Of a stretch of DNA of 64,000 nucleotides, positions 29,722 to 41,352 are shown in pieces. The position numbers and the translations under genes were made by a program. Under the pieces are notes generated by a model. That model made no database searches, was not told the origin of the DNA, and saw only the letters and a program-made list of their open reading frames with translations. Position 1 is the first letter of the stretch. Each line of letters starts with the position of its first letter. Source of the DNA: Sedimentisphaerales bacterium (GTDB taxonomy: Bacteria; Planctomycetota; Phycisphaerae; Sedimentisphaerales; Anaerobacaceae); assembly GCA_963708075.1 (NCBI GenBank), contig OY970194.1, forward strand, positions 5,408,001-5,472,000, read 5' to 3'.

Positions 29722-31805
29722 GTTTCCTGGCGTGGACATTCCTGTTCGGGGCACTGGCGGTCATCGGGCCGATCGTGGCCCACCTGCTGAGCAAGCCCCG
29801 CTTTCGGCGCGTGCCCTTCACGATGCTTCGCTTCCTGCGTGCGGGACAGAGCCACAGCCACTCTCGGCGCAGGCTTCGCGACCTGCTGATCCTGCTTCTT
29901 CGCTGCGCGATCGTCGTGCTGATCGCGATCCTGTTCGCCCAGCCGGTGCTGCATGTCAAAGCGACCCCGAAGGTGCAAAAGGCCGTCATTCATCTAGCTC
30001 TGGATGATTCGATGTCCATGGCCTATCGCGATGGCAGCCGAACTTTGTTCGAGCGGATGATCGAGAAGGCCCTCGATCACGTCAGGCAGGCGCCGGAGGA
30101 TGCCGCCTTCAACATCTGCGGCCTGGCGTCGGGCCGCTCAAGCCAGGGCCTGACGAAAAGCGAGGCGATCACGGCGATCAAGCAACTCACAGTTGTTTCG
30201 GCCGGCGTCCGACTTGCTGACTTCTTCTCAGCCCTGGGTCAAGCCGGCCGAGCGGCCGGCCCGGACGCCATGATTTCCGCCGTCCTCCTGAGCGATTTCA
30301 CGCCGAGTATTCTGCGGGAGTTCGAGCAGATTCAGACGCCCGCGACTGTCGAGGAGATTTACTGCGAGCCTATCATGCCTGACAAGCCGGCGGAGAATAC
30401 CGCGATTGTCGCCGCGCGAGTGGCCGGCCTCATCGGTGACACGCTGAACCTCGATGTCACCGTCGCCCACTATGGACCGACGCAGCGGGAGTGCACCGTC
30501 ACGGCAGGACTCCCCGACCACAGGTCCTTGTGCAAACAGGAGTTGAGCCTTGCCCCCGGGCAGCACAGGGCCGTGCGATTACAGATGGGCCTGAGTACCG
30601 GGTTACACAGGCCCGACCAGCCGTGCCTGCCCATTGAGTTGAGCGTGTCACAGGAGGACGGCCTGGCTGAGGATGACACATTTCGTATCGCGGTCTATGT
30701 CCCTCGCGCCACACAGACAAACGTCGTCCTCGTCCACCGCGCTGAGGAGACTTTTCTGTTTGAGACGGCGATCCAGGCCCTCTCCAACTCGGGCTCCCTC
30801 GAACGGCTGAGCCTGACCAAGGTCCCGCAGGGCCGGCTTACCACCCGCGACCTCGATGGAGCTAGTATCGCGGTCTTCTCATCCTTGCCCGCAGGCCCGT
30901 CCGTACGTGCAGGCGACCTGAAAGCCTTCGCACAGAGGGGCGGCAGGCTCATCTTCTTTACGGCGGGCACGCAGGATTTGGAGACCGCAAAGCTGTTGTC
31001 GCGCGAGGGGCTTCTGGCGGTCCAGCCACAGCGGTGGGTCCAGGCCATCACATATCCCGAGCCCCGGCCCTGCACCGGCGTATCTCTCGACCTGGACGAG
31101 CAGGCGGCAAGGTCCCTGTCCAACTATCGCCTCGATCAGGTCGCCCTGAAGGGGTACTGGCTGTGCCAGCCGGCCGCACAGGCGCAGTGCCTCTGGCGCC
31201 TGAGCGGCGGCGAAGGGCTCATCTACGGCATGCCCTGCGGGCACGGGCTCTCCATCTTCGTCAATACGAGCATCGACGATTCCCTCGGATTGCTCGCCAA
31301 GTCCGCCGCATGGGTCGCCTTCTGCCGCTGCCTCATCGGTGAGACTGAGCAGGTCCAGCAGTTCTGCTTCTCCACCGGCGAGCAGCCCGTTCTTCGAATT
31401 GCGGATCGCGGATCCTGGAATGCGGATTCCGGAGGGCGTGGCGAGCGTACGGCCCTCTCGGTGGAAAACTGTGACGGAAGCAGGGGCAGGGCGGCAGCCC
31501 AAGGCAACGTGCTTCTGCTGCCCACGCCTGCGGGCACGGGGTGGATGAAGACAACGGATGGGCCAATCCTGTACGCAGGCATCAACCTGCCTGCCGGGGA
31601 GACCGACCTGACGGCCCCGACGCAGGAGAAGATTGCCGATATAGCAGGCCGTATATTTGTGCGGACGGAGGCCCGGAGGCCGGAGACGGCCGGAGTCCCT
31701 GTATCCGCGAACCTTGAGCAAAAGCCTGTTTGGCCGTTCTTCGCCTGGGCGGCGATGCTTCTGCTTGTGCTCGAATCGGCGGTCGCGAACAGGCTCAAGA
31801 GGTAG
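29718..31805 (+). CDS. BatA N-terminal / vWA domain membrane protein
   Basis: GTG start overlapping the DUF58 stop; 'PIVAHLL...F.MLRFL...LLLRC...FAQP'; MIDAS 'DDSMS'; C-terminal TM helix. Confidence 0.85.
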   Translation: MSFLAWTFLFGALAVIGPIVAHLLSKPRFRRVPFTMLRFLRAGQSHSHSRRRLRDLLILLLRCAIVVLIAILFAQPVLHVKATPKVQKAVIHLALDDSMSMAYRDGSRTLFERMIEKALDHVRQAPEDAAFNICGLASGRSSQGLTKSEAITAIKQLTVVSAGVRLADFFSALGQAGRAAGPDAMISAVLLSDFTPSILREFEQIQTPATVEEIYCEPIMPDKPAENTAIVAARVAGLIGDTLNLDVTVAHYGPTQRECTVTAGLPDHRSLCKQELSLAPGQHRAVRLQMGLSTGLHRPDQPCLPIELSVSQEDGLAEDDTFRIAVYVPRATQTNVVLVHRAEETFLFETAIQALSNSGSLERLSLTKVPQGRLTTRDLDGASIAVFSSLPAGPSVRAGDLKAFAQRGGRLIFFTAGTQDLETAKLLSREGLLAVQPQRWVQAITYPEPRPCTGVSLDLDEQAARSLSNYRLDQVALKGYWLCQPAAQAQCLWRLSGGEGLIYGMPCGHGLSIFVNTSIDDSLGLLAKSAAWVAFCRCLIGETEQVQQFCFSTGEQPVLRIADRGSWNADSGGRGERTALSVENCDGSRGRAAAQGNVLLLPTPAGTGWMKTTDGPILYAGINLPAGETDLTAPTQEKIADIAGRIFVRTEARRPETAGVPVSANLEQKPVWPFFAWAAMLLLVLESAVANRLKR

Positions 31806-31806
31806 A

Positions 31807-34800
31807 ATGGCTGCGAAAGCAGAGAACATCTTGCATGACCTGATCAGTCGGATCGCACGGGTGCGACGGTGGCTCGTCGCGCTGGGGGTGTTGAAGACGG
31901 CTGCGATTGGGCTTGCCTGTGTCTGCCTCTATGTCGGCCTCTACGCCTGGCTCGACCACCACGCGCATTTCGGTCACGCAGGCAGGCTCTTGGCGTTGCT
32001 CGTACTGATCGGACTGCTGGCCGTGCTCTCATACTTCCTCGTCCGGGCACTCAAGCGCAGCATGACCTACGCCTACGCGGCTAACTACGTCGAGAACAGG
32101 CGCAGCTTCGATCAGCAGCTTGTGGCCGCCGTCGAGTACTTTGAAAGAGGACAGGATTACCCCTATTCCCGGGCGCTCGCTGAGCAGTTGGTGCTGCAGG
32201 TGGACGAGGCCGCACGCGGATTCCGCTTCGATTCCACGGTCAACAAGTGGCAGGGCTACGTGCTGGCAGGCCTCATCGCGCTCGGCCTGTTCGTGGTCGG
32301 CCTGTTCGTCCAGCAGAACGTGCTGTACTTCTCGTCCTATCTGTCCCGGCTGTTCCGCCCGCTGGCAAAGATCGAGCCTGTGCCTGCGACCGTGCTGGAG
32401 TCTGTGACAGAGGATATTGTCGTCGCCCGCGACACTCCGGTCACGCTCACCGCCGCTGTTCAAGGCCGCACGCCGGAGTCTGCTTCGCTCGTCCTGACCC
32501 GGCACGACCCATGCGATGCCAATACAGTTTCCGAGAGATTGGAGGTCGGCCCAGCCGTGGATGCGCAGGGCAATACGACCCTCACGGCAACCAGGACGCT
32601 CGGCACGCTTGGACATTTCAGCTATCGGTTCGAAGCAGGCGGTGTCTCGTCTGAGGTGCACACAGTGAAGGTGTGCGAGCCGCCTTCGATCAAGAGCATG
32701 ACAGCCACAGTATCCTTGCCCCAGGACAAGGGGCAAGGCGCCGCGACTTACACTCAGCAGGTCAAAGACGGAACGCTGGAAGTGCTGCCGCACAGCACGG
32801 TCGAGCTGCAGGTCGAGTGTACCGCGCCTCTGCGCGAGGCAAGTGTCGCCATGCCGGGCGGGCAACCGGCCGTGCGGACCCCCGATGGGGCCAACTCCTT
32901 CAGTGTCCAATTCCCGGTGGATGCCGCCGCCGCCATGGAGTTCACGCTCACGAGCGCCGATGGCATTGCCAATCGGGAGCCGCAGCAGCTTCGCCTCGTG
33001 CTCAAAGGCGATGAGCCTCCGCAGTTCAAGCTGCTTTGCCCCGACGGCGACTGCCTCGCCACGGATGTCGCCAGTATTCCTATCACATTCGAGGTCACAG
33101 ATGACTTCGGCCTGGACGCTGTGCAACTCTTCTGCGAGTTGCCCCGCCGTGATCCGTCTCTGATCGAGTCCAAAGTGGGCGAGGGTGCCAAGAGCATGAC
33201 ATTAACGCATACGCTCGAACTAGAGCAACACGACGTACGGGTCGGCGACAGTATTCTGTTCTATGCTCGGGCGACGGATGTCAGCACGGGACAACGGACT
33301 GCGGACGCCAATTCCTGCAGCGAGGTCTATTTCATTGAGATCCGGCCCTATCAGCAGTACTGGCATCCGGAGGAGGGCGGCCAGCCGAGCTCCATCCCTG
33401 GCCCTGTCCCCGAGGACCTCATCGCAATCCTCGAATACACCCGGGCGATTCTCAAGAAGACTTGGGCACTCGCCAATGCGTCACTGCCCGCGAGCGAAAG
33501 CGCGTCGCGCCTCGACGCCCTTCGCGGGGATGTGGAGTACTGTACCCGGACGCTCGCGAGCACTCGCGATGACCCGGAGAACGCCTTTAGCGAATCCGAC
33601 AAGGCAGCACTGCGTAAGATTGGCGAACGCTACGAGGACGCCGGGGATAAGCTCAGGCGTGGCGATGCCGACGCCGCGCTGCCTGCCGTGCGGGACGCCT
33701 ACCGCCTGCTGCGGCAGTTCATCGACGAGTTACACCTGAAGTGGACGCCACCTCAGAGCGGCCAAAGCGTCCCCGAGGAAAAGCCCGAGCGCGTCAAGCT
33801 CCAGGAGGAGCCGCAAAGCCCGGAGATGGACAAGCAGCGCGTCGAGAACCAGCTTGAAAAACTGCAGCGCAAGATCGATTCTCTGACCCGCGAGCAGAAG
33901 TCCCTCAGCACCGACCTGAACAAGGCCCTGCAACAGGAGCAGGCGGCAAGCAGCGGCCAGCCGGATAGCGCATCCTCCTCAAGTGCCGGCAGCAGCGGAC
34001 AATCATCACCGAGTCCGGCCCAGGACTCGCAGCGTCAATCGACACAGGACCCACAGGGTGCAGATAAGAAGATGCCTCAGCAAACGCGCGAGGACAAACA
34101 GACCGCGGGCGACGCGGGTTCCTCTGAGGGCCAGAAAGACAACGAGCAGAAAGACTCCGCGAAGGATCAGGCGACTCAGGGCCAATCGACCTCCGCACAC
34201 GCGCAGTCGCAGGACGGCAGCCAGTCGAGCGCGCAACAGGGCTCCTCACCCGGTAGTTCAGGCTCACCGCAGCAAAACTCGGCAAGCCAACCCGGCTCCA
34301 CACAGGCGAACTCGCAAGACGGCAAGGAATCGAGTACGCCGCAAGGCTCGTCACCGGGCAGTCCCGGTGCCGCACAGAACAGCCAGACTGGCCAAGCCCG
34401 CTCGGCCGGCTCACAGAGCGAGGGGAGCCCTTCCGCGGCGACGGATGCACGGCTTCGCATGCTGGAGGCGAAGCAGAAGGCCATCCGCGAGCAGGCGTCG
34501 CAGGTGCAGGCGGAGTTGCAGCAGGTGCGCACGACGGAGGTGACTGCCCAGGGCCGTGCGCGGGATGAGGCGCAAAAGCGCGTGGGGCAGGCCGTGGAGG
34601 AGATGAAGGAGTTCGAGGAAAAGCTCGCGGATGCGCGGTATGAGGCGGCGCCATCGCAGGACAAAGCCGGCCTGTCCGAGTCGGCCGAATCCGCACGTCG
34701 GCAGCTTGCCGAGGCGGGCCGGGCCATCCGCCAAGGGCTGTCCGGCGATAAGCCCAAGACGGCTGCCGAGCAGGCCCGGGAGATGGCCGAGCAGCTTGCC

Positions 34801-35151
34801 GCCGATGCCGACGCGCTCGATGAGTCTCTCAGCCCCGCCGACCGCCAGCGAATGCTGGAGCGGCTCGAGGCGGCCAAACGCCTGCTCCAGGACAATCCCG
34901 ACGTGCAGTGGGGCACGGTCTCCGGCCGCGGCACGTCCACCGGCGGCCTGGTCTATACGCAGGGCGGAGCCACGACGCCCGCGGAGACGGCGCGGATGCT
35001 GGCGAAGCAGTTCTGGTCCATCGCCATCGAGGCAAGGCAGAAGGAACTCCAGCCGTTTGTGGAGCAGCCGTCCGACGTCGAGTTCTTCCAGGCGGAGAAG
35101 GAGTTCTTTGAGAGAGCGGCCCAATTCAAACCGTCGGGTACGGAAAAATGA
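31807..35151 (+). CDS. Large membrane-anchored coiled-coil protein (DUF4175-like) of the MoxR operon
   Basis: N-terminal TM helices, Ig-like middle ('VTDDFGL', 'VGDSILFYARATD'), S/Q/G-rich linker, helical C-terminus. Confidence 0.7.
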   Translation: MAAKAENILHDLISRIARVRRWLVALGVLKTAAIGLACVCLYVGLYAWLDHHAHFGHAGRLLALLVLIGLLAVLSYFLVRALKRSMTYAYAANYVENRRSFDQQLVAAVEYFERGQDYPYSRALAEQLVLQVDEAARGFRFDSTVNKWQGYVLAGLIALGLFVVGLFVQQNVLYFSSYLSRLFRPLAKIEPVPATVLESVTEDIVVARDTPVTLTAAVQGRTPESASLVLTRHDPCDANTVSERLEVGPAVDAQGNTTLTATRTLGTLGHFSYRFEAGGVSSEVHTVKVCEPPSIKSMTATVSLPQDKGQGAATYTQQVKDGTLEVLPHSTVELQVECTAPLREASVAMPGGQPAVRTPDGANSFSVQFPVDAAAAMEFTLTSADGIANREPQQLRLVLKGDEPPQFKLLCPDGDCLATDVASIPITFEVTDDFGLDAVQLFCELPRRDPSLIESKVGEGAKSMTLTHTLELEQHDVRVGDSILFYARATDVSTGQRTADANSCSEVYFIEIRPYQQYWHPEEGGQPSSIPGPVPEDLIAILEYTRAILKKTWALANASLPASESASRLDALRGDVEYCTRTLASTRDDPENAFSESDKAALRKIGERYEDAGDKLRRGDADAALPAVRDAYRLLRQFIDELHLKWTPPQSGQSVPEEKPERVKLQEEPQSPEMDKQRVENQLEKLQRKIDSLTREQKSLSTDLNKALQQEQAASSGQPDSASSSSAGSSGQSSPSPAQDSQRQSTQDPQGADKKMPQQTREDKQTAGDAGSSEGQKDNEQKDSAKDQATQGQSTSAHAQSQDGSQSSAQQGSSPGSSGSPQQNSASQPGSTQANSQDGKESSTPQGSSPGSPGAAQNSQTGQARSAGSQSEGSPSAATDARLRMLEAKQKAIREQASQVQAELQQVRTTEVTAQGRARDEAQKRVGQAVEEMKEFEEKLADARYEAAPSQDKAGLSESAESARRQLAEAGRAIRQGLSGDKPKTAAEQAREMAEQLAADADALDESLSPADRQRMLERLEAAKRLLQDNPDVQWGTVSGRGTSTGGLVYTQGGATTPAETARMLAKQFWSIAIEARQKELQPFVEQPSDVEFFQAEKEFFERAAQFKPSGTEK

Positions 35152-37327
35152 CGCTCACGCACTATCCGGGACATCTCGTTGTCGTGACTGCCGCAGTGGC
35201 GCTGGCCGTGCTGACGTTTACCGCGTTCTATTGCGCCGAGACGCGAGCCCCCCAGCGCGGGCGATACCGCTGGCTCCTGATGCTGCTGCAATATGCGGCA
35301 ATCCTCGTGCTGTTTATCATCACGTGGGACCCGTCCACGCTGCAGACACACGAGGTCTTCCAGCGCAACGCCGTCGTGACGCTGTTCGACACGAGTGAGA
35401 GCATGTCCATCGCCGATGAGCGGAAGCTCGCCCGCTTGGACAAAGCCGTGGAGAAGTTCGCAGCATCCTTCCATCCGGATGATTCCACCGGTCCCGAGTA
35501 CCGGCTCTACGGCTTCGACCGCCAGGCGTATCATTGCAGCTCGGCCGACCTGCTGCGCCGCTGGGGTTCCGAGACAAATCTGCACGCCGCGATGTCACTG
35601 CTGACCCAGTCCGGCCGAGGTGCAGACCGAAGTCCGGCCGGCGCGATGGTGTTCACGGATGGCCGGGCAGGGGATAGGAACGTCCGGAGTTATCTGCCGC
35701 CGCTGGAGAAGGGCACGCAGATGTTTGTCATAGGCGTCGGCTCCAAAACTCCACGGATGGGTGCCGCGATCAAATCGATTTCCGCTCCCGCGCGGGCTTG
35801 GATCGATACGGCGTATCCCGCAGTCGTCACGGTCACAGGCACGAACCTCTCGAATGAGCCGCTCACCGTCGAGCTGCTCCACGACGGCCAGGTCACAGAC
35901 TCGCGCCGCATTGCACGAGACCAATTGAAGCGTTCCACCGACCGGCCGACCGCGGGAGAGGCCACCCTGGAGTTCAGAGTCCCCGCGCAGCAACTCGGCA
36001 CGCACGTCCTCACGGCCCGCGTCGTGCCTCACGGGAACGAGGCGAACACGGCCAACAACACCCGCAGTACGGCCGTCGAGGTCACCCAGGAACAAACGCT
36101 TCGGCTCCTGCTGTACGCACAGCAGGCGAGCTTCGATGTGGGCAAGATCCGCCAGGCGCTGGCCTGGGACAAACGAATCGAGCTCGACCTTCGGCTGGAC
36201 ATGATCCGCGACCCGGTCCTCGCGCAGCGCGCTTCTATCAACTCCGCGTCCGTGAAGTTCCCCGAGGGCAGGGAGCAACTCAATGACTTCGATGTGATCG
36301 TCCTGGGCCCGTGTGATCTGGGCCGATTCACGTCCGTGCAGCGCGACGCCTTGTACAGTTTCGTCGCGGATCGCGGGGGCGGGCTGCTGCTCCTGCCCGG
36401 TCCCAGCGTGGCCTCTCTGGCCGCCTGGCAGAGCGAGCAAGCCGATGTGTTGCTGCCTGTGATCCTTGACGCTCGGAATCCTCGTGTCATGCCGCCGGAC
36501 CCAAACACGATCAAGTTGTCCTTCGAGGCTCAGGTTGGCCGCCTCTTCAATCCGGCGGACCTTGCAGATCCGAACAAATCCATCTCCCCGTATTATCATG
36601 TGGCTCGGACCAAGCCTGCGGCCACCACGTTGGCCACGGTGGGGGGCACGCCGATCATCTCGGCCCATCGGCTCGGCCGGGGACGCGTCTGCCTCCTCAA
36701 TGCCGCCAAGCTGTTCACGCTCTATCGCGAGGACGAGAAGGGCGGTCTACTGGGCGACTTGATCTGCGGCCTTGCCGCCTACCTGGGCGCTGCGCTTCCG
36801 GGGGGACCGGCATCGAGTTGTTCGTCGAGCGCGAGGTGGACGATCCAAGGCGTGCGGCGTTCAACGCCTATGTCACCGACAAGGATTTCAAGCCGGTCAG
36901 CGAGGCGAGTGTGCTCCTGAGCGTCGGTGACCAGGCGGTGACCATGGAGCCGGCGGGCGAGGGACGCTACACAGCCGAACTCGACCTCGGATCGGCTGAA
37001 TCCGTCGTAGCTACTGCCCAGGCGGAGCAGAACGGCACGTTCCTTGGTGAGAGGACGATCGCTGCCAATCTCCCGCCAGTCCGTAATGAAATGTCCGAGA
37101 CTGATCTCGACGAGCCGTTCCTCAAGGCCCTCGCCCAGCGCCTCGGCGCCAAATACCTCCACATCGACGACGTTGACAACAAAATCGCGGGGACTTTCAC
37201 AGCGAAGCAGCAGATCGGCACCACGCAGGAAATCACCAGCGCCTGGCCGCGCTGGCCCCTGCTGCTCCTGCTATGCCTGCTGCTGTCCATCAAGTGGTTC
37301 CTCCGGCGATCTATAGGACTGGTCTGA
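35148..37327 (+). CDS. vWA + glutamine-amidotransferase-like membrane protein (frameshift at about 36790-36806)
   Basis: 'FDTSESM', 'FTDG', 'FDVIVLG', 'FV..RGGGLLLL', 'GRGRV'; C-terminal 'L..LA...G...W...KWFLRR..GL' in the next frame. Confidence 0.75.
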
Positions 37328-38157
37328 TGCGAAGAATAGCTCCACAAATCGCGACACTTGTCTTGCTGCTCTCGTGCATGACCTGCCCCGAGGCTGCCGA
37401 TTGCGGCGTGCCGACCAATCATCGGCCAGAGACAACGCTGCTCATTGTCAGCGGGATCAGCAGGGACCCGAACGATCAGGCGACCCGCGACCAGGCTATG
37501 ATCGCCCTGCGAGAGCATCTGCTCAAACGGATGAATGTCGATCCACAGAGGCTGGTGGTTCTTACGGCCGACGCGTCTCCCGCCTCCAGCCTGCAGTCTA
37601 CAGTCTCCCAGATTTCTCGCGTGATGGACACGTTCGTATCCGCCGTTCGCCCCACGGACAGGTTCATCTTCTACTATATCGGCCAGGCCAATGTGGCCGG
37701 TGGGGAGTTGCGGTTCAATCTGCCCGGGCCGGATATGACGCAGAAGGAACTGGCGGGACGGCTTGGCAGGATCAAGGCGGGCGCTCAGCTTATCGTGCTC
37801 GATTGCCCCTGTGCGGCTCTGGCCGCCAAAACTCTGACCTCAGCCAATCGAATCACCGTATGCGCCTCAGCGGCAACACAGGTTTACGGCACGCGGTTCA
37901 CCCCGCACTTCGTGCACGCGCTCGCCCAGCCGCAAACCGATGCGAACAATGACGCCAAGGTCTCGGTCCTGGAGGCCTTTACAGAGACCGCCAAAGAAAT
38001 CGAGCAGTGGTATCGACAAAAGGGAATCTTGTCCACGGAAACCCCTTGCCTGGAAGACGACGGCGATGGCACACCGAGCGAGCGGCCGTGGAAGCATGCG
38101 ACTGAAGGTGGCGACGGTCTGAAAGCCTCCGCATTCCTGTTGGCGGAGGGACGCTGA
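37327..38157 (+). CDS. Secreted caspase-like (C13/C14 fold) protein
   Basis: Signal peptide; 'FIFYYIGQA...FNLPGPD', 'VLDCPC', 'D.NNDAKVSVLEAF', 'LEDDGDG'. Confidence 0.6.
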   Translation: MRRIAPQIATLVLLLSCMTCPEAADCGVPTNHRPETTLLIVSGISRDPNDQATRDQAMIALREHLLKRMNVDPQRLVVLTADASPASSLQSTVSQISRVMDTFVSAVRPTDRFIFYYIGQANVAGGELRFNLPGPDMTQKELAGRLGRIKAGAQLIVLDCPCAALAAKTLTSANRITVCASAATQVYGTRFTPHFVHALAQPQTDANNDAKVSVLEAFTETAKEIEQWYRQKGILSTETPCLEDDGDGTPSERPWKHATEGGDGLKASAFLLAEGR

Positions 38158-38158
38158 G

Positions 38159-39166
38159 ATGCAACGGCGAGATTTCCTGAGACTGGCGGCTGGACTGACG
38201 CTTGGCGTCGGGCAGTCATATGCTTGTGCAGGCTCGGCGCCGCGCACACGGCGACAGGCGGACCCGCAGTTTGAATCCTTCATGCGGGACATGCAGGCGA
38301 GGATGCGCAACATGCAGCAGTCGATGCCGCCGTTTGGCATCCCGCCCTCGCAGCCGCCGTTCGGCTTTCCGCCGTCACGGTCGCCGCTCGGACCCGACCC
38401 CAACCAGCCGTCATATATGGCTTCGGCCGCAACCTACGATGACTACGACTTTGTCCTGACGCGGGTGCAGTTCAAAGAGCAGGGGACACCCGGGTACGGC
38501 AAGGGCCCCGATGTCTGGAACGTCCGCCCGGGTGCCGACGCCAATCTCCTGCGCGAACTCTCTGCGGCGATCCGCTGCAAGGTCAAACCGGTCGATCTGG
38601 GCTTCGACTGGGACCCGCAGTACGCCCAGCCGGGCCAACTCAACGCAGTCGTCACCTTCGACGACCGGCAGCGCCTGCGCGAGTACCCCTTCCTCTTCAT
38701 GACCGGCGAGAACGGCTACGTGTTCACCGACGAGCAGAAACAGAACCTGCAGGACTACATCAAGGCCGGCGGCTTTCTGCTCATGGACGACTGCGTCGTC
38801 AGCGACGGCGGTGATTTCTTCTATCGCAGCTCCTTCGAGCTGCTGGAGAACCTCTTCGGCAAGGGGGCCGTGCGCCAGATCCCGCGCGAGCACGAGGTTT
38901 GCCACAACATCTACGACCTGCGCGAGGTGGGCCTTCCGACGCTGGAGTACATCCAGCGCCGCCCGTACCGCCACATGCGTCAGACACACGGCCAGAACCA
39001 CGGCCCCCGCGGCGTCTTCATCGGCGACCGGCTCGCGGTCTTCCTCAGCTCCACCGACCTGCATTGCGGCTGGTGCGACAGCCACGGCATCGAATGGGGA
39101 CTCGACGCCTACCGAAGAACCATCCAGTGGGGCATCAACATCATTATGTACGCCATGACGCATTGA
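38159..39166 (+). CDS. DUF4159 domain protein, Tat-exported
   Basis: 'RRDFLR'; 'YPFLFMTG', 'LQDYIKAGGFLLMDD', 'DL.CGW', 'GINIIMYAMTH'. Confidence 0.88.
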   Translation: MQRRDFLRLAAGLTLGVGQSYACAGSAPRTRRQADPQFESFMRDMQARMRNMQQSMPPFGIPPSQPPFGFPPSRSPLGPDPNQPSYMASAATYDDYDFVLTRVQFKEQGTPGYGKGPDVWNVRPGADANLLRELSAAIRCKVKPVDLGFDWDPQYAQPGQLNAVVTFDDRQRLREYPFLFMTGENGYVFTDEQKQNLQDYIKAGGFLLMDDCVVSDGGDFFYRSSFELLENLFGKGAVRQIPREHEVCHNIYDLREVGLPTLEYIQRRPYRHMRQTHGQNHGPRGVFIGDRLAVFLSSTDLHCGWCDSHGIEWGLDAYRRTIQWGINIIMYAMTH

Positions 39167-39455
39167 CAGGTCAGTCGGCGGTTATTGGCATCCTGTATTT
39201 AGGCGCAACGCGAGCCCATTTGGCTTTTGGTTGACCGATGCTCAAGGCCGCATCGCTTGTTAGTTCACCTCGCGAAGAAGCGGACTACCAGGACATAACG
39301 TCGGCGGTCACAGCAAGCATGCGCAATATTAGCTAATCTCCAGTAGATTCCCGGCAGAGGTGAAGCATCGTCACGACCATACTCCATTCATCGACCTGCC
39401 GACAGGTCACTGTCGCCAATTGCTCTTTCCGGAGTCATTGCACCAGTTTGGCGAC

Positions 39456-39656
39456 CTATCCTCCATTGTTGGATGGAGGCGTGGACTCATTTGTGTTGGA
39501 ACCTGGCGTGGAGCATGCATTCTTCTTCCATTCAGGCCAACTCTCGACAATTCTCCGAGCCTCAGCAAAGTGCGCAGGCTGCGATTGTTGGCTGGAGGCG
39601 GTTGTCCGGTTCCAAGCGAGCCCACCTTCCCTATTGCTTTCCTGCGGCTTGTCCAT
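39456..39656 (-). CDS. Small hypothetical protein (66 aa) overlapping the dCTP deaminase 3' end
   Basis: ATG preceded by a purine-rich tract (GGAGAGTGGAA); overlaps the upstream gene by 26 nt; helix-like core 'FAEARRIVESWPEWKKN'. Confidence 0.5.
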   Translation of the reverse strand: MDKPQESNREGGLAWNRTTASSQQSQPAHFAEARRIVESWPEWKKNACSTPGSNTNESTPPSNNGG

Positions 39657-41187
39657 TTCCACTCTCCAGTCCTTCCCGATATTCGGCGAATCTCTTTGTT
39701 GCCTCAGTCTCCTGCTCCAAGTAGGAGCAAGGGAGCATCTGTATTCTCACACAACTCTGGTCGCGCTGCCAGCGTAAAATATGACCATCGTTGTTTTTAC
39801 GCACAAGGTCGAATCCAGTGCTCAATCTCATCGAGAATAAGTCAAAGAACTTTCTAGGACCTATCCCGACGAATGGCTCGAACTTGACAAAGGTCGCATT
39901 AGAGCTTTTCCCGTCGGCAATTGCGTCGTCGTGAAATTCCATTGCTTTGCTCTTGGGATAGGGCTCTACGTACACAACCCGTGCAATTCCGGCGGCTATT
40001 ATGTGCTTTGCGCAGTTATGACATGGGAATGTCGTTGTATATAACGTCGCCCTGCGAGCACCCACAGTGTTCCGTGCACAGAAGAGTAGTGCCTCCATTT
40101 CAGCGTGTACCACACGTCCATATTCAGTAAGGTCTCCTATCCTGCTCTTCAGCAGCGCGGCATCGACCTTCGATTTATCGACGCTTTTGTCCAGTCGTCC
40201 CAGGATTTCCTCTACTATCTTCTGCTGCTCCTTCTTGTTTGAATCTTCACCTCTCTTGTAGTCTCGCCCGTTCTTAGCATCTTCGTATTCGTGTGTGTCC
40301 GGGTTCCATTTAGACCAATACAAGCCGCCTCCAGGTTTGGGGCAGTCATTAGCCCCTGTAGCAATAATCTCTTCGTTATTAGCTATTACAGCTCCTATTT
40401 GTCGTGACAGGTCCGCCGACCTCAGGGAAGAAGCGAACGCCATGAACATCGCGTATTCGTCAAAGGTAGGAGTGATGTACGGATTCCCGAAAATAAGGTC
40501 CAATATTCGCCACAAGCTGCTTTTCCAGCAACGGTCGTCATCATCCAGATTGATGAAGAAGTCCGCCAAGTGAAATGTGTCACGCGTGTGTTGACCGTGC
40601 CCCTCCACCTCATCCTCATCCCTTGTGATTAGCTCTTCCGCCTTAGCCGGATCTACATTCTTCTCCCCTGTCAGGTAGTCTCGACGGCTCTGCTTGCCGG
40701 AGTATACTCCGATAAGATAGAAGCCGTCTGTGTAGACGCGTCGGAGACGCCTCACCTCCTCGGGATGCTTCAATGAATCCACTATATAAGCAATGCGGGG
40801 TCGAGGCTTAACATTCTCCTGTTCGTCATGATCTCTCTCACGGAATACTTCTGAACAGATTCCTAGAGCAAGAATGGAGTTGTCGCCTGAAGACTTACGC
40901 GCTTGATTGCCTCGATCGATATATGTACTTACACGATCGAACTCCGACGAGAATTCCGGAGGGATATCGCTGTAAAGGGTTCCAATCACATGTTGAGACA
41001 CACGGATTTCCCTAACATGGTAGTTGAAGACACGAAGCCTATCAGTGATGGCCTCAACCACTCGCTTTTGTTGAGTACCCACCGCACCTACGAGGCCAAT
41101 CACAAGTTCCGTATCTGTGTACCTACCCTCGAACGATTTGTGAATATGGTCGTCTGAAGTACGAATGGTGCTCGCATTCTCACACAA
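39631..41187 (-). CDS. Anti-phage dCTP deaminase (Dcd/AvcD-like; kinase-like domain + Zn deaminase)
   Basis: 'ELVIGLVGAVGT', 'DSLKHPEEV', 'ADFFI', 'RSADLSRQIGAVI', 'HAEMEAL', 'TTFPCHNCAKHII', 'EPYPKS'; TTG start 8 nt after GGAGG; AT-richer than its flanks. Confidence 0.9.
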   Translation of the reverse strand: MCENASTIRTSDDHIHKSFEGRYTDTELVIGLVGAVGTQQKRVVEAITDRLRVFNYHVREIRVSQHVIGTLYSDIPPEFSSEFDRVSTYIDRGNQARKSSGDNSILALGICSEVFRERDHDEQENVKPRPRIAYIVDSLKHPEEVRRLRRVYTDGFYLIGVYSGKQSRRDYLTGEKNVDPAKAEELITRDEDEVEGHGQHTRDTFHLADFFINLDDDDRCWKSSLWRILDLIFGNPYITPTFDEYAMFMAFASSLRSADLSRQIGAVIANNEEIIATGANDCPKPGGGLYWSKWNPDTHEYEDAKNGRDYKRGEDSNKKEQQKIVEEILGRLDKSVDKSKVDAALLKSRIGDLTEYGRVVHAEMEALLFCARNTVGARRATLYTTTFPCHNCAKHIIAAGIARVVYVEPYPKSKAMEFHDDAIADGKSSNATFVKFEPFVGIGPRKFFDLFSMRLSTGFDLVRKNNDGHILRWQRDQSCVRIQMLPCSYLEQETEATKRFAEYREGLESGNGQAAGKQ

Positions 41188-41275
41188 GATAGATCCCTCC
41201 AATCAACGCACCTCTAATGACCACAGGTTCTGTCAACCCAAACGCAAGGCCACGAAAGTCACTGTTACCAGTAAG

Positions 41276-41304
41276 AATATACCCAGAATTGCGCGACAAT
41301 ACAA
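41276..41304 (-). promoter_or_regulatory. Sigma70-like promoter for the dCTP deaminase
   Basis: Minus strand TTGTAT-17 nt-TATATT, about 90 nt upstream of the start codon. Confidence 0.55.
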
Positions 41305-41352
41305 GTGTGAAATTGGGTTGTGAACAGAAGCTGTGGTGGCACAATCTGCGCG

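Follow-up and report, generated by a model that had tools for sequence, protein, structure and literature searches.

Among the closest described relatives of the locus analyzed here are the AvcID (DcdV/DifV) systems, type III-like toxin-antitoxin systems in which a deaminase of the same enzyme family, AvcD, is encoded next to a small partner locus, AvcI, located 5' of the enzyme gene (bioRxiv 10.1101/2021.03.31.437871; PMC10511110). According to the first report, AvcD enzymes lacking this 5' locus filament cells, and the partner inhibits the enzyme post-translationally and in a mostly cognate-specific manner (bioRxiv 2021.03.31.437871). AvcI was described there as an RNA overlapping a small ORF, start-codon mutants of which were still active, and activity was lost when the V. 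cholerae ORF was shortened by 4 bp at its 3' end. Activation of AvcD was reported to follow transcription shut-off (PMC10511110; PMC12409362), and spectinomycin, which blocks translation, did not activate the enzyme (PMC10511110). Related anti-phage deaminases were handled by Tal et al. (bioRxiv 10.1101/2021.04.26.441389) as single genes cloned together with their promoters, which gave viable, defended cells; the accessible part of this preprint does not mention a downstream microprotein. Within the literature covered, the mechanism by which nucleotide-depleting deaminases are kept inactive in the absence of infection is explained for the AvcI branch alone. On the phage side, T4 Dmd, ICP1 AdfB, RB69 AdfA and phage TE's pseudo-ToxI, a known antitoxin mimic, are proposed to neutralize toxins directly, and Dmd, AdfA and AdfB are reported to resemble the host antitoxins little or not at all in sequence (PMC11481870).

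We analyzed a window of 64,000 nucleotides from a Sedimentisphaerales bacterium (assembly GCA_963708075.1, contig OY970194.1), in which a small ORF overlaps the 3' end of a dCTP deaminase gene. The locus shares with AvcID the enzyme family, a small adjacent partner and, in the model proposed below, the release of the enzyme after host shut-off. However, AvcI lies 5' and is reported to act as an RNA, whereas the partner found here lies 3', is selected as a protein and accompanies another clade of enzymes; the tested ETEC homologue is 33% identical and lacks a WPxWK ORF. Together these differences indicate that the window system is not AvcID. The small gene apparently represents a conserved and undescribed microprotein family, by which a known defence enzyme is extended to a two-gene variant; candidate mimics occur in phages.

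The deaminase and the overlapping microprotein gene

The coordinates of all features are given in Table 1. As the earlier note had proposed, the large gene encodes an anti-phage dCTP deaminase: the protein scored 474.8 bits against NF041025, above the curated cut-off of 400, and matched the PADLOC dCTPase model with an E-value of 4.5e-173. Residues H366, E368, C394 and C397 are invariant across 58 aligned relatives. The closest relatives come from Planctomycetota assemblies, and the gene shares with its family the kinase-like plus deaminase architecture, a patchy distribution and the location in a low-GC cassette. The GC3 of the deaminase gene is 0.53 vs. 0.84 in the neighbouring DUF4159 gene, and the deaminase and the microprotein gene were probably acquired horizontally as one unit. 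No inhibitor locus of the AvcID kind lies immediately 5' of the deaminase, where approximately 150 nt of intergenic DNA are followed by a zinc-ribbon gene that, as far as seen, stands outside the defence system. On the other side, the cassette is convergent with an operon whose DUF4159 gene has a twin-arginine-like signal.

Table 1 Features of the defence locus and its neighbours (positions in the window)
Feature	Position	Strand	Remarks
66-aa WPxWK microprotein gene	39456..39656	minus	ATG at 39656, stop ends at 39456
Conserved core, residues 26-47	39516..39581	minus	amphipathic helix, W40-P41 break, short helix
GGAG ribosome-binding site	39664..39667	minus	within the deaminase 3' end, 8-11 nt before the ATG
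Anti-phage dCTP deaminase, 523 aa	39631..41202	minus	zinc-binding HAE and PCHNC motifs; NF041025, PADLOC PDLC02373, Pfam PF00383
Low-GC two-gene cassette	39170..41350		50% GC vs. 60% in the genome
Zinc-ribbon gene, 167 aa	41353-41856	minus	double zinc-ribbon (PF13453), host-like GC, 5' of the cassette
Operon of large membrane-anchored proteins	31657-39166	plus	last gene DUF4159

The 26-nt overlap of the two genes (39631-39656) and the RBS-like tract described in the earlier note were both recovered, and an alternative in-frame GTG is present at 39662, two codons 5' of the microprotein ATG. The ORF contains the core FAEARRIVESWPEWKKNA, for which the family consensus is F-x-x-H-L-x-x-A-x-x-I-V-x-x-W-P-x-W-K. 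AlphaFold2, run with an alignment of 81 rows, predicted helices at residues 26-38 and 42-47, interrupted at W40-P41 (residues 31-50 had pLDDT values of 93 and 83, the flanks 52-65), and the flanks are predicted to be disordered. When the C-terminal residues were compared, no degron-like ending common to the family was seen.

The window ORF had no match in Pfam, PADLOC, NCBIfam or the PDB, where a sequence profile gave one chance-level match (E 0.27), and Foldseek searches with the peptide model in viral and PDB libraries returned nothing at E up to 0.001. In the ESM Atlas, it fell into unnamed clusters only, with scores of 0.80-0.86 that are under the trust threshold of this resource. It matched PHROG 38465 (E 7e-4), while the core of the family matched both PHROG 38465 and PHROG 29728, with relatives down to E 1e-7; neither entry has a function or description. 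Scans for promoters and terminators stayed at chance level, and the source genome holds one significant copy of the peptide. A modified-peptide (RiPP) precursor, which the Trp motif might suggest, was dropped because no maturation enzyme is found beside the window ORF.

A conserved family selected at the protein level

The motif search behind other deaminases that the earlier note had named as a check was performed on 80 loci fetched by deaminase similarity alone together with the window, from which two truncated loci were dropped, leaving 79 with readable stops. An ORF with WPxW[KRE] was present at the deaminase end in 59 of the 79 (R and E were admitted at the last motif position only after the first results had been inspected), in comparison with 1/733 opposite-strand and 2/608 same-strand control windows of 700 nt, and many of the 20 misses show divergent versions of the motif by eye. 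The outcome that the earlier note had named as refuting, homologous deaminases lacking such an ORF beside them, was therefore not observed. Hosts of the motif loci include Planctomycetota, Pseudomonas, Photorhabdus, Vibrio, Enterobacter and Bacillota, and the peptides are 47-76 aa long, apart from one of 101 aa. A Shine-Dalgarno-like word precedes 56/59 family starts vs. 180/1180 control ATGs. The start overlaps the deaminase stop by 4 nt in 16 of the 59 loci and lies at -32 to +17 from it in 53. In two assembled genomes, the peptide gene just 3' of the deaminase stop appears to be broken, by a frameshift (L048) or by a TGA at the first Trp (L064), either of which could be a real loss or an assembly error.

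Selection was estimated in three groups of related loci, where the 20-codon core had in-frame pN/pS values of 0.36, 0.27 and 0.22 (pairs inside one group are not independent), in comparison with 0.88-2.02 in the shifted frames and 0.74-0.80 in the C-terminal flank. Among the 20 columns of each codon position, 10, 18 and 18 are variable at the third position and 5-10 at positions 1 and 2, and all four Pro and both Lys codons are in use. A profile built from 46 deaminase-linked peptides recovered 1140 clusters at E up to 1e-3, and among the 150 clusters listed, all 150 carry WPxW and 117 are at most 80 aa long; a word-seeded search with the single ORF had found one relative. When longer proteins were searched, one match and no deaminase fusion were obtained among the best 7998 candidates scored, which is weak evidence for the absence of such fusions. 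Contigs assembled from RNA libraries cover parts of an enterobacterial homologous locus (L153) and span the gene junction in 3/4 runs at a depth of 2-4, although DNA may be present in these libraries and contigs cannot show transcription.

The microprotein of the window is a real, conserved, protein-selected gene placed for translational coupling. The picture drawn in the earlier note, that of a mostly disordered, coupled partner with a short conserved motif, agrees with the conservation, the codon-level selection, the placement of the starts, the linkage and the modelled flanks. Its expectation that annotation pipelines would miss the ORF was borne out in part: a Vibrio plasmid gene table omits the homologue, and the ORF behind an E. 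coli deaminase is annotated in RefSeq as hypothetical protein WP_000021256.1. Abutting or overlapping starts, a ribosome-binding site and purifying selection give the locus the form of a type II two-gene operon with a small protein partner, the operon being read from the sequence.

Distribution in cells and among deaminase clades

A tree of 121 deaminases was calculated with FastTree, with SH-like support only, after leaving out 15 partial, frameshifted or stop-containing loci and three duplicates. A downstream peptide scoring ≥ 11 bits was found in 61/81 members of the window clade (SH 90) vs. 1/40 deaminases outside; this threshold was picked after the scores were known and the labels are partly circular, as the profile derives from the same loci, the motif count of 59/79 being less so. 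In cells, the peptide is restricted to one clade of anti-phage dCTP deaminases, and the window enzyme lies outside the clade of the ETEC AvcD homologue. The deaminase columns specific to the window clade point to no binding site, and most of them are kept in the members without the peptide.

An intact deaminase without a recognisable partner ORF was found in five clade members (L035, L046, L078, L145, L187). In two of them, the N-terminus bears an additional domain, a cold-shock domain in L046:2584-4449 (weak Pfam match, E 0.023) and a PDC-S35-like N-terminus in L187:521-2287 (PADLOC PDC-S35, E 1e-6); none was seen in the other three. A cold-shock-like N-terminal domain (weak Pfam match) is also present in a deaminase whose 3' end is truncated (L039:2728-4236). 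In a well-supported subclade (L056, L059, L066, L074, L075, L079), the partner lacks the Pro and is of the WxVW, MVVWK or LPAWR type, and the enzymes have Gln in place of Leu460.

The peptide was found in 5/251 Planctomycetota genomes (deaminase in 10), 1/400 Gammaproteobacteria genomes (deaminase in 11) and 4/331 Enterobacteriaceae genomes (deaminase in 15), the latter two samples possibly overlapping. The three surveys were not peptide-selected except for three seed genomes, which make up 3 of the 10 genomes with the peptide. When the surveys are pooled, a deaminase is present in every genome with the peptide (10/10), and 10 of the 11 peptide copies adjoin one. The peptide was detected in 0/946 deaminase-negative genome searches, with misses possible as limited candidates were scored per genome and many genomes are incomplete. 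The non-adjacent copy (L135; G246:C83:11001-11147, minus strand) ends a cassette of other genes, with no deaminase in the 3.1 kb covered, in a genome that also has an intact deaminase/peptide pair. By eye, this cassette has genes resembling DUF262 and HEPN nucleases; the one gene tested had no PADLOC match. The E. coli pair (WP_044686932.1 and WP_000021256.1) is flanked by a phage polarity-suppression gene on one side and, on the other, by an integrase at tRNA-Sec, a locus that is presumably a P4-like satellite.

Phage copies of the motif

The motif occurs in the Pectobacterium phages Peat1, CB5 and phiTE (gene 068), in the 37-aa gene XbC2_73 of the Xanthomonas jumbo phage XbC2, in Pantoea phage AAS21, in the Pseudomonas phages DMTU_1, 15b and D3, in Vibrio phage P018-4, and in 33 IMG/VR loci. 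We take phage TE, the carrier of pseudo-ToxI, to be this phiTE. A profile built only from deaminase-linked peptides gave 20-49 bits for 40/40 viral loci and matched 0/40 reversed controls; as the phage copies were chosen as matches, these scores are no measure of enrichment. Searches with tblastn found a deaminase at 0/40 viral motif loci, in up to 4 kb on each side and less at contig ends, and no deaminase is present in the annotations of the short flanks of D3 and P018-4. Over the DNA searched, all 40 loci thus hold a phage-encoded homologue without the deaminase. Their cores keep the conserved residues of the family inside unrelated reading frames. In contrast to Dmd, AdfA and AdfB, the phage copies are homologues of the cellular peptide and can be grafted onto other proteins.

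The viral motif loci have small hypothetical genes as neighbours or lie within a tRNA region or replication modules. A scan of 30 proteins that flank or bear the motif gave matches to phage families for 20 of them, mostly helicases, primase, polymerase, RNA ligase, recombinase and homing endonucleases. Two copies of the motif are present in four matches. Fusions were found with MazG-like proteins twice (P0060, L107:4016-4708), with a NUDIX protein (P0079) and with a dCMP deaminase (P0026), the last two of which could be of viral or cellular origin. A motif fused to nucleotide-pool enzymes (P0026, P0060, P0079, L107) would fit a counter to nucleotide depletion. Several viral contigs (L152-L156) carry the intact deaminase/peptide pair as cargo.

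An antitoxin-like model and its alternatives

We lean, if not strongly, towards the reading in which the microprotein acts as a type II-like antitoxin: its helix-WPxWK core would bind the deaminase and inhibit it, would disappear once the host is shut off and would be imitated by phages. The locus would then be a two-gene defence module comparable to a type II toxin-antitoxin pair in which the toxin gene comes first. The core would hold the enzyme off until host gene expression is stopped by a phage; with replenishment at an end, the peptide would be lost, the enzyme freed and dCTP depleted. Phages would keep the enzyme off by producing the core themselves, either free-standing or fused to accessory proteins, which would amount to antitoxin mimicry. 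The "labile inhibitor" of the earlier note would be the most likely role of the microprotein, and an antitoxin is favoured over an activator, as a gene that switches on a defence enzyme would hardly be kept by phages. The model draws on the linkage to the deaminase, the protein-level selection, the coupled starts, the phage copies lacking a deaminase, and the precedents of the inhibitory partner locus of AvcD and of pseudo-ToxI. If the peptide were a replaceable regulatory part, this would also explain the extra N-terminal domains of the two enzymes without a partner ORF.

Several observations argue against the antitoxin model. The family has no common degron-like C-terminus, one copy (L135) has no deaminase nearby, and, in the accessible part of Tal et al., cells were viable and defended with deaminase genes cloned with their promoters, among which an enzyme of the window clade might prove to work without the peptide. 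The enzyme may not even need an inhibitor, since five clade members have an intact deaminase without a recognisable partner. A labile-protein trigger would be without direct precedent in the family, given that AvcI is reported as an RNA and that spectinomycin is reported not to activate AvcD. The phage copies could also bind another host target.

The same linkage, coupling and selection would be expected of any stoichiometric partner, and translational coupling behind a leading toxin gene would yield the two products in similar quantities, as would suit a required co-factor or sensor subunit that assembles or switches on the deaminase, with the phage copies as dominant-negative decoys. We regard such a co-factor as unlikely: phage cores that retain the conserved residues would risk activating the enzyme, five clade members lack the peptide, and the partner locus of the AvcD clade is inhibitory. 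It is likewise improbable, in our view, that the motif binds a third, general host protein (e.g., a protease, RNA polymerase or a nucleotide enzyme) without direct contact with the deaminase, being used by the cassette as a guard or tether and by phages for their own ends. The conservation of the motif across distant phyla and its portability onto unrelated proteins (MazG-like, NUDIX, dCMP deaminase), sometimes in two copies, would suit a general target of this kind. However, the cellular copies adjoin a deaminase with the single exception given above and did not turn up in the deaminase-negative searches, and the variant peptides track deaminase subclades (e.g., the WxVW/MVVWK type and the Leu460-to-Gln subclade), as shared ancestry alone could also make them do.

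AvcI is described as an RNA whose sequence overlaps a small ORF and which stays active when the start codon is mutated. This raises the question of whether here, too, the same DNA acts through an AvcI-like antitoxin RNA, with the ORF incidental. Such an RNA seems very improbable, as variation is concentrated at third codon positions, the folding z-scores average 0.02 over 37 ORFs with one below -2, Rfam gave no match, and the phage copies keep the amino acids within unrelated reading frames. That the ORF arose by chance, or rides neutrally on a mobile cassette, as the shortness, the low-complexity flanks with pN/pS near 0.8 and the sub-threshold ESM Atlas score might suggest, is largely refuted by the control counts, the 1140 clusters and the purifying selection on the core, and the probability of this reading is next to negligible.

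Under the antitoxin reading, the WPxWK microprotein would be a second, protein-based candidate off-switch for nucleotide-depleting deaminases, in a large clade spanning Planctomycetota, Pseudomonadota and Bacillota. Isolated phages would carry candidate counter-defence genes (e.g., XbC2_73, 37 aa) for which no published counterpart was found; the literature search, outside of which most subscription journals lay, turned up neither a description of the microprotein nor one of a phage product inhibiting these deaminases. The locus would have to be entered in catalogues of defence systems as two genes, and experimental results could differ if the deaminase is cloned without its 3' neighbour.

Small ORFs beside other deaminase clades

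Deaminases of other clades are accompanied by different small ORFs 3' of the enzyme gene (L086:2762-2983, L142, L144, L190, L217, L085, L193), which overlap the deaminase stop or sit near it; this suggests clade-specific partner families. In the clade to which the ETEC AvcD homologue belongs, 10/10 rows had a small ORF upstream of the enzyme gene, eight of them ending in a helix and Trp, and so did 3/5 further members, two of them ending in Trp, so that overall 13/15 members of the AvcD clade have an upstream ORF and 10 end in Trp. For ORFs at the avcI position, the folding z-scores were near zero in 6/7, and a phage search with one such peptide found nothing. As a lead only, these loci suggest that the RNA antitoxin locus described in print may contain a conserved peptide. 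A still wider reading, which we regard as doubtful, is that anti-phage dCTP deaminases are generally under the control of clade-specific microproteins, with WPxWK as the antitoxin of one clade that phages have grafted, and with the published RNA antitoxin acting partly via a peptide.

Upstream small ORFs with a ribosome-binding site at the avcI position were observed at L083:948-1133, L084:917-1087, L149:1220-1396, L169:435-608, L188:269-451 and L081:901-1086 as well as in L208, L212 and L216. Most of the upstream ORFs of the AvcD clade end in an amphipathic helix with a terminal Trp.
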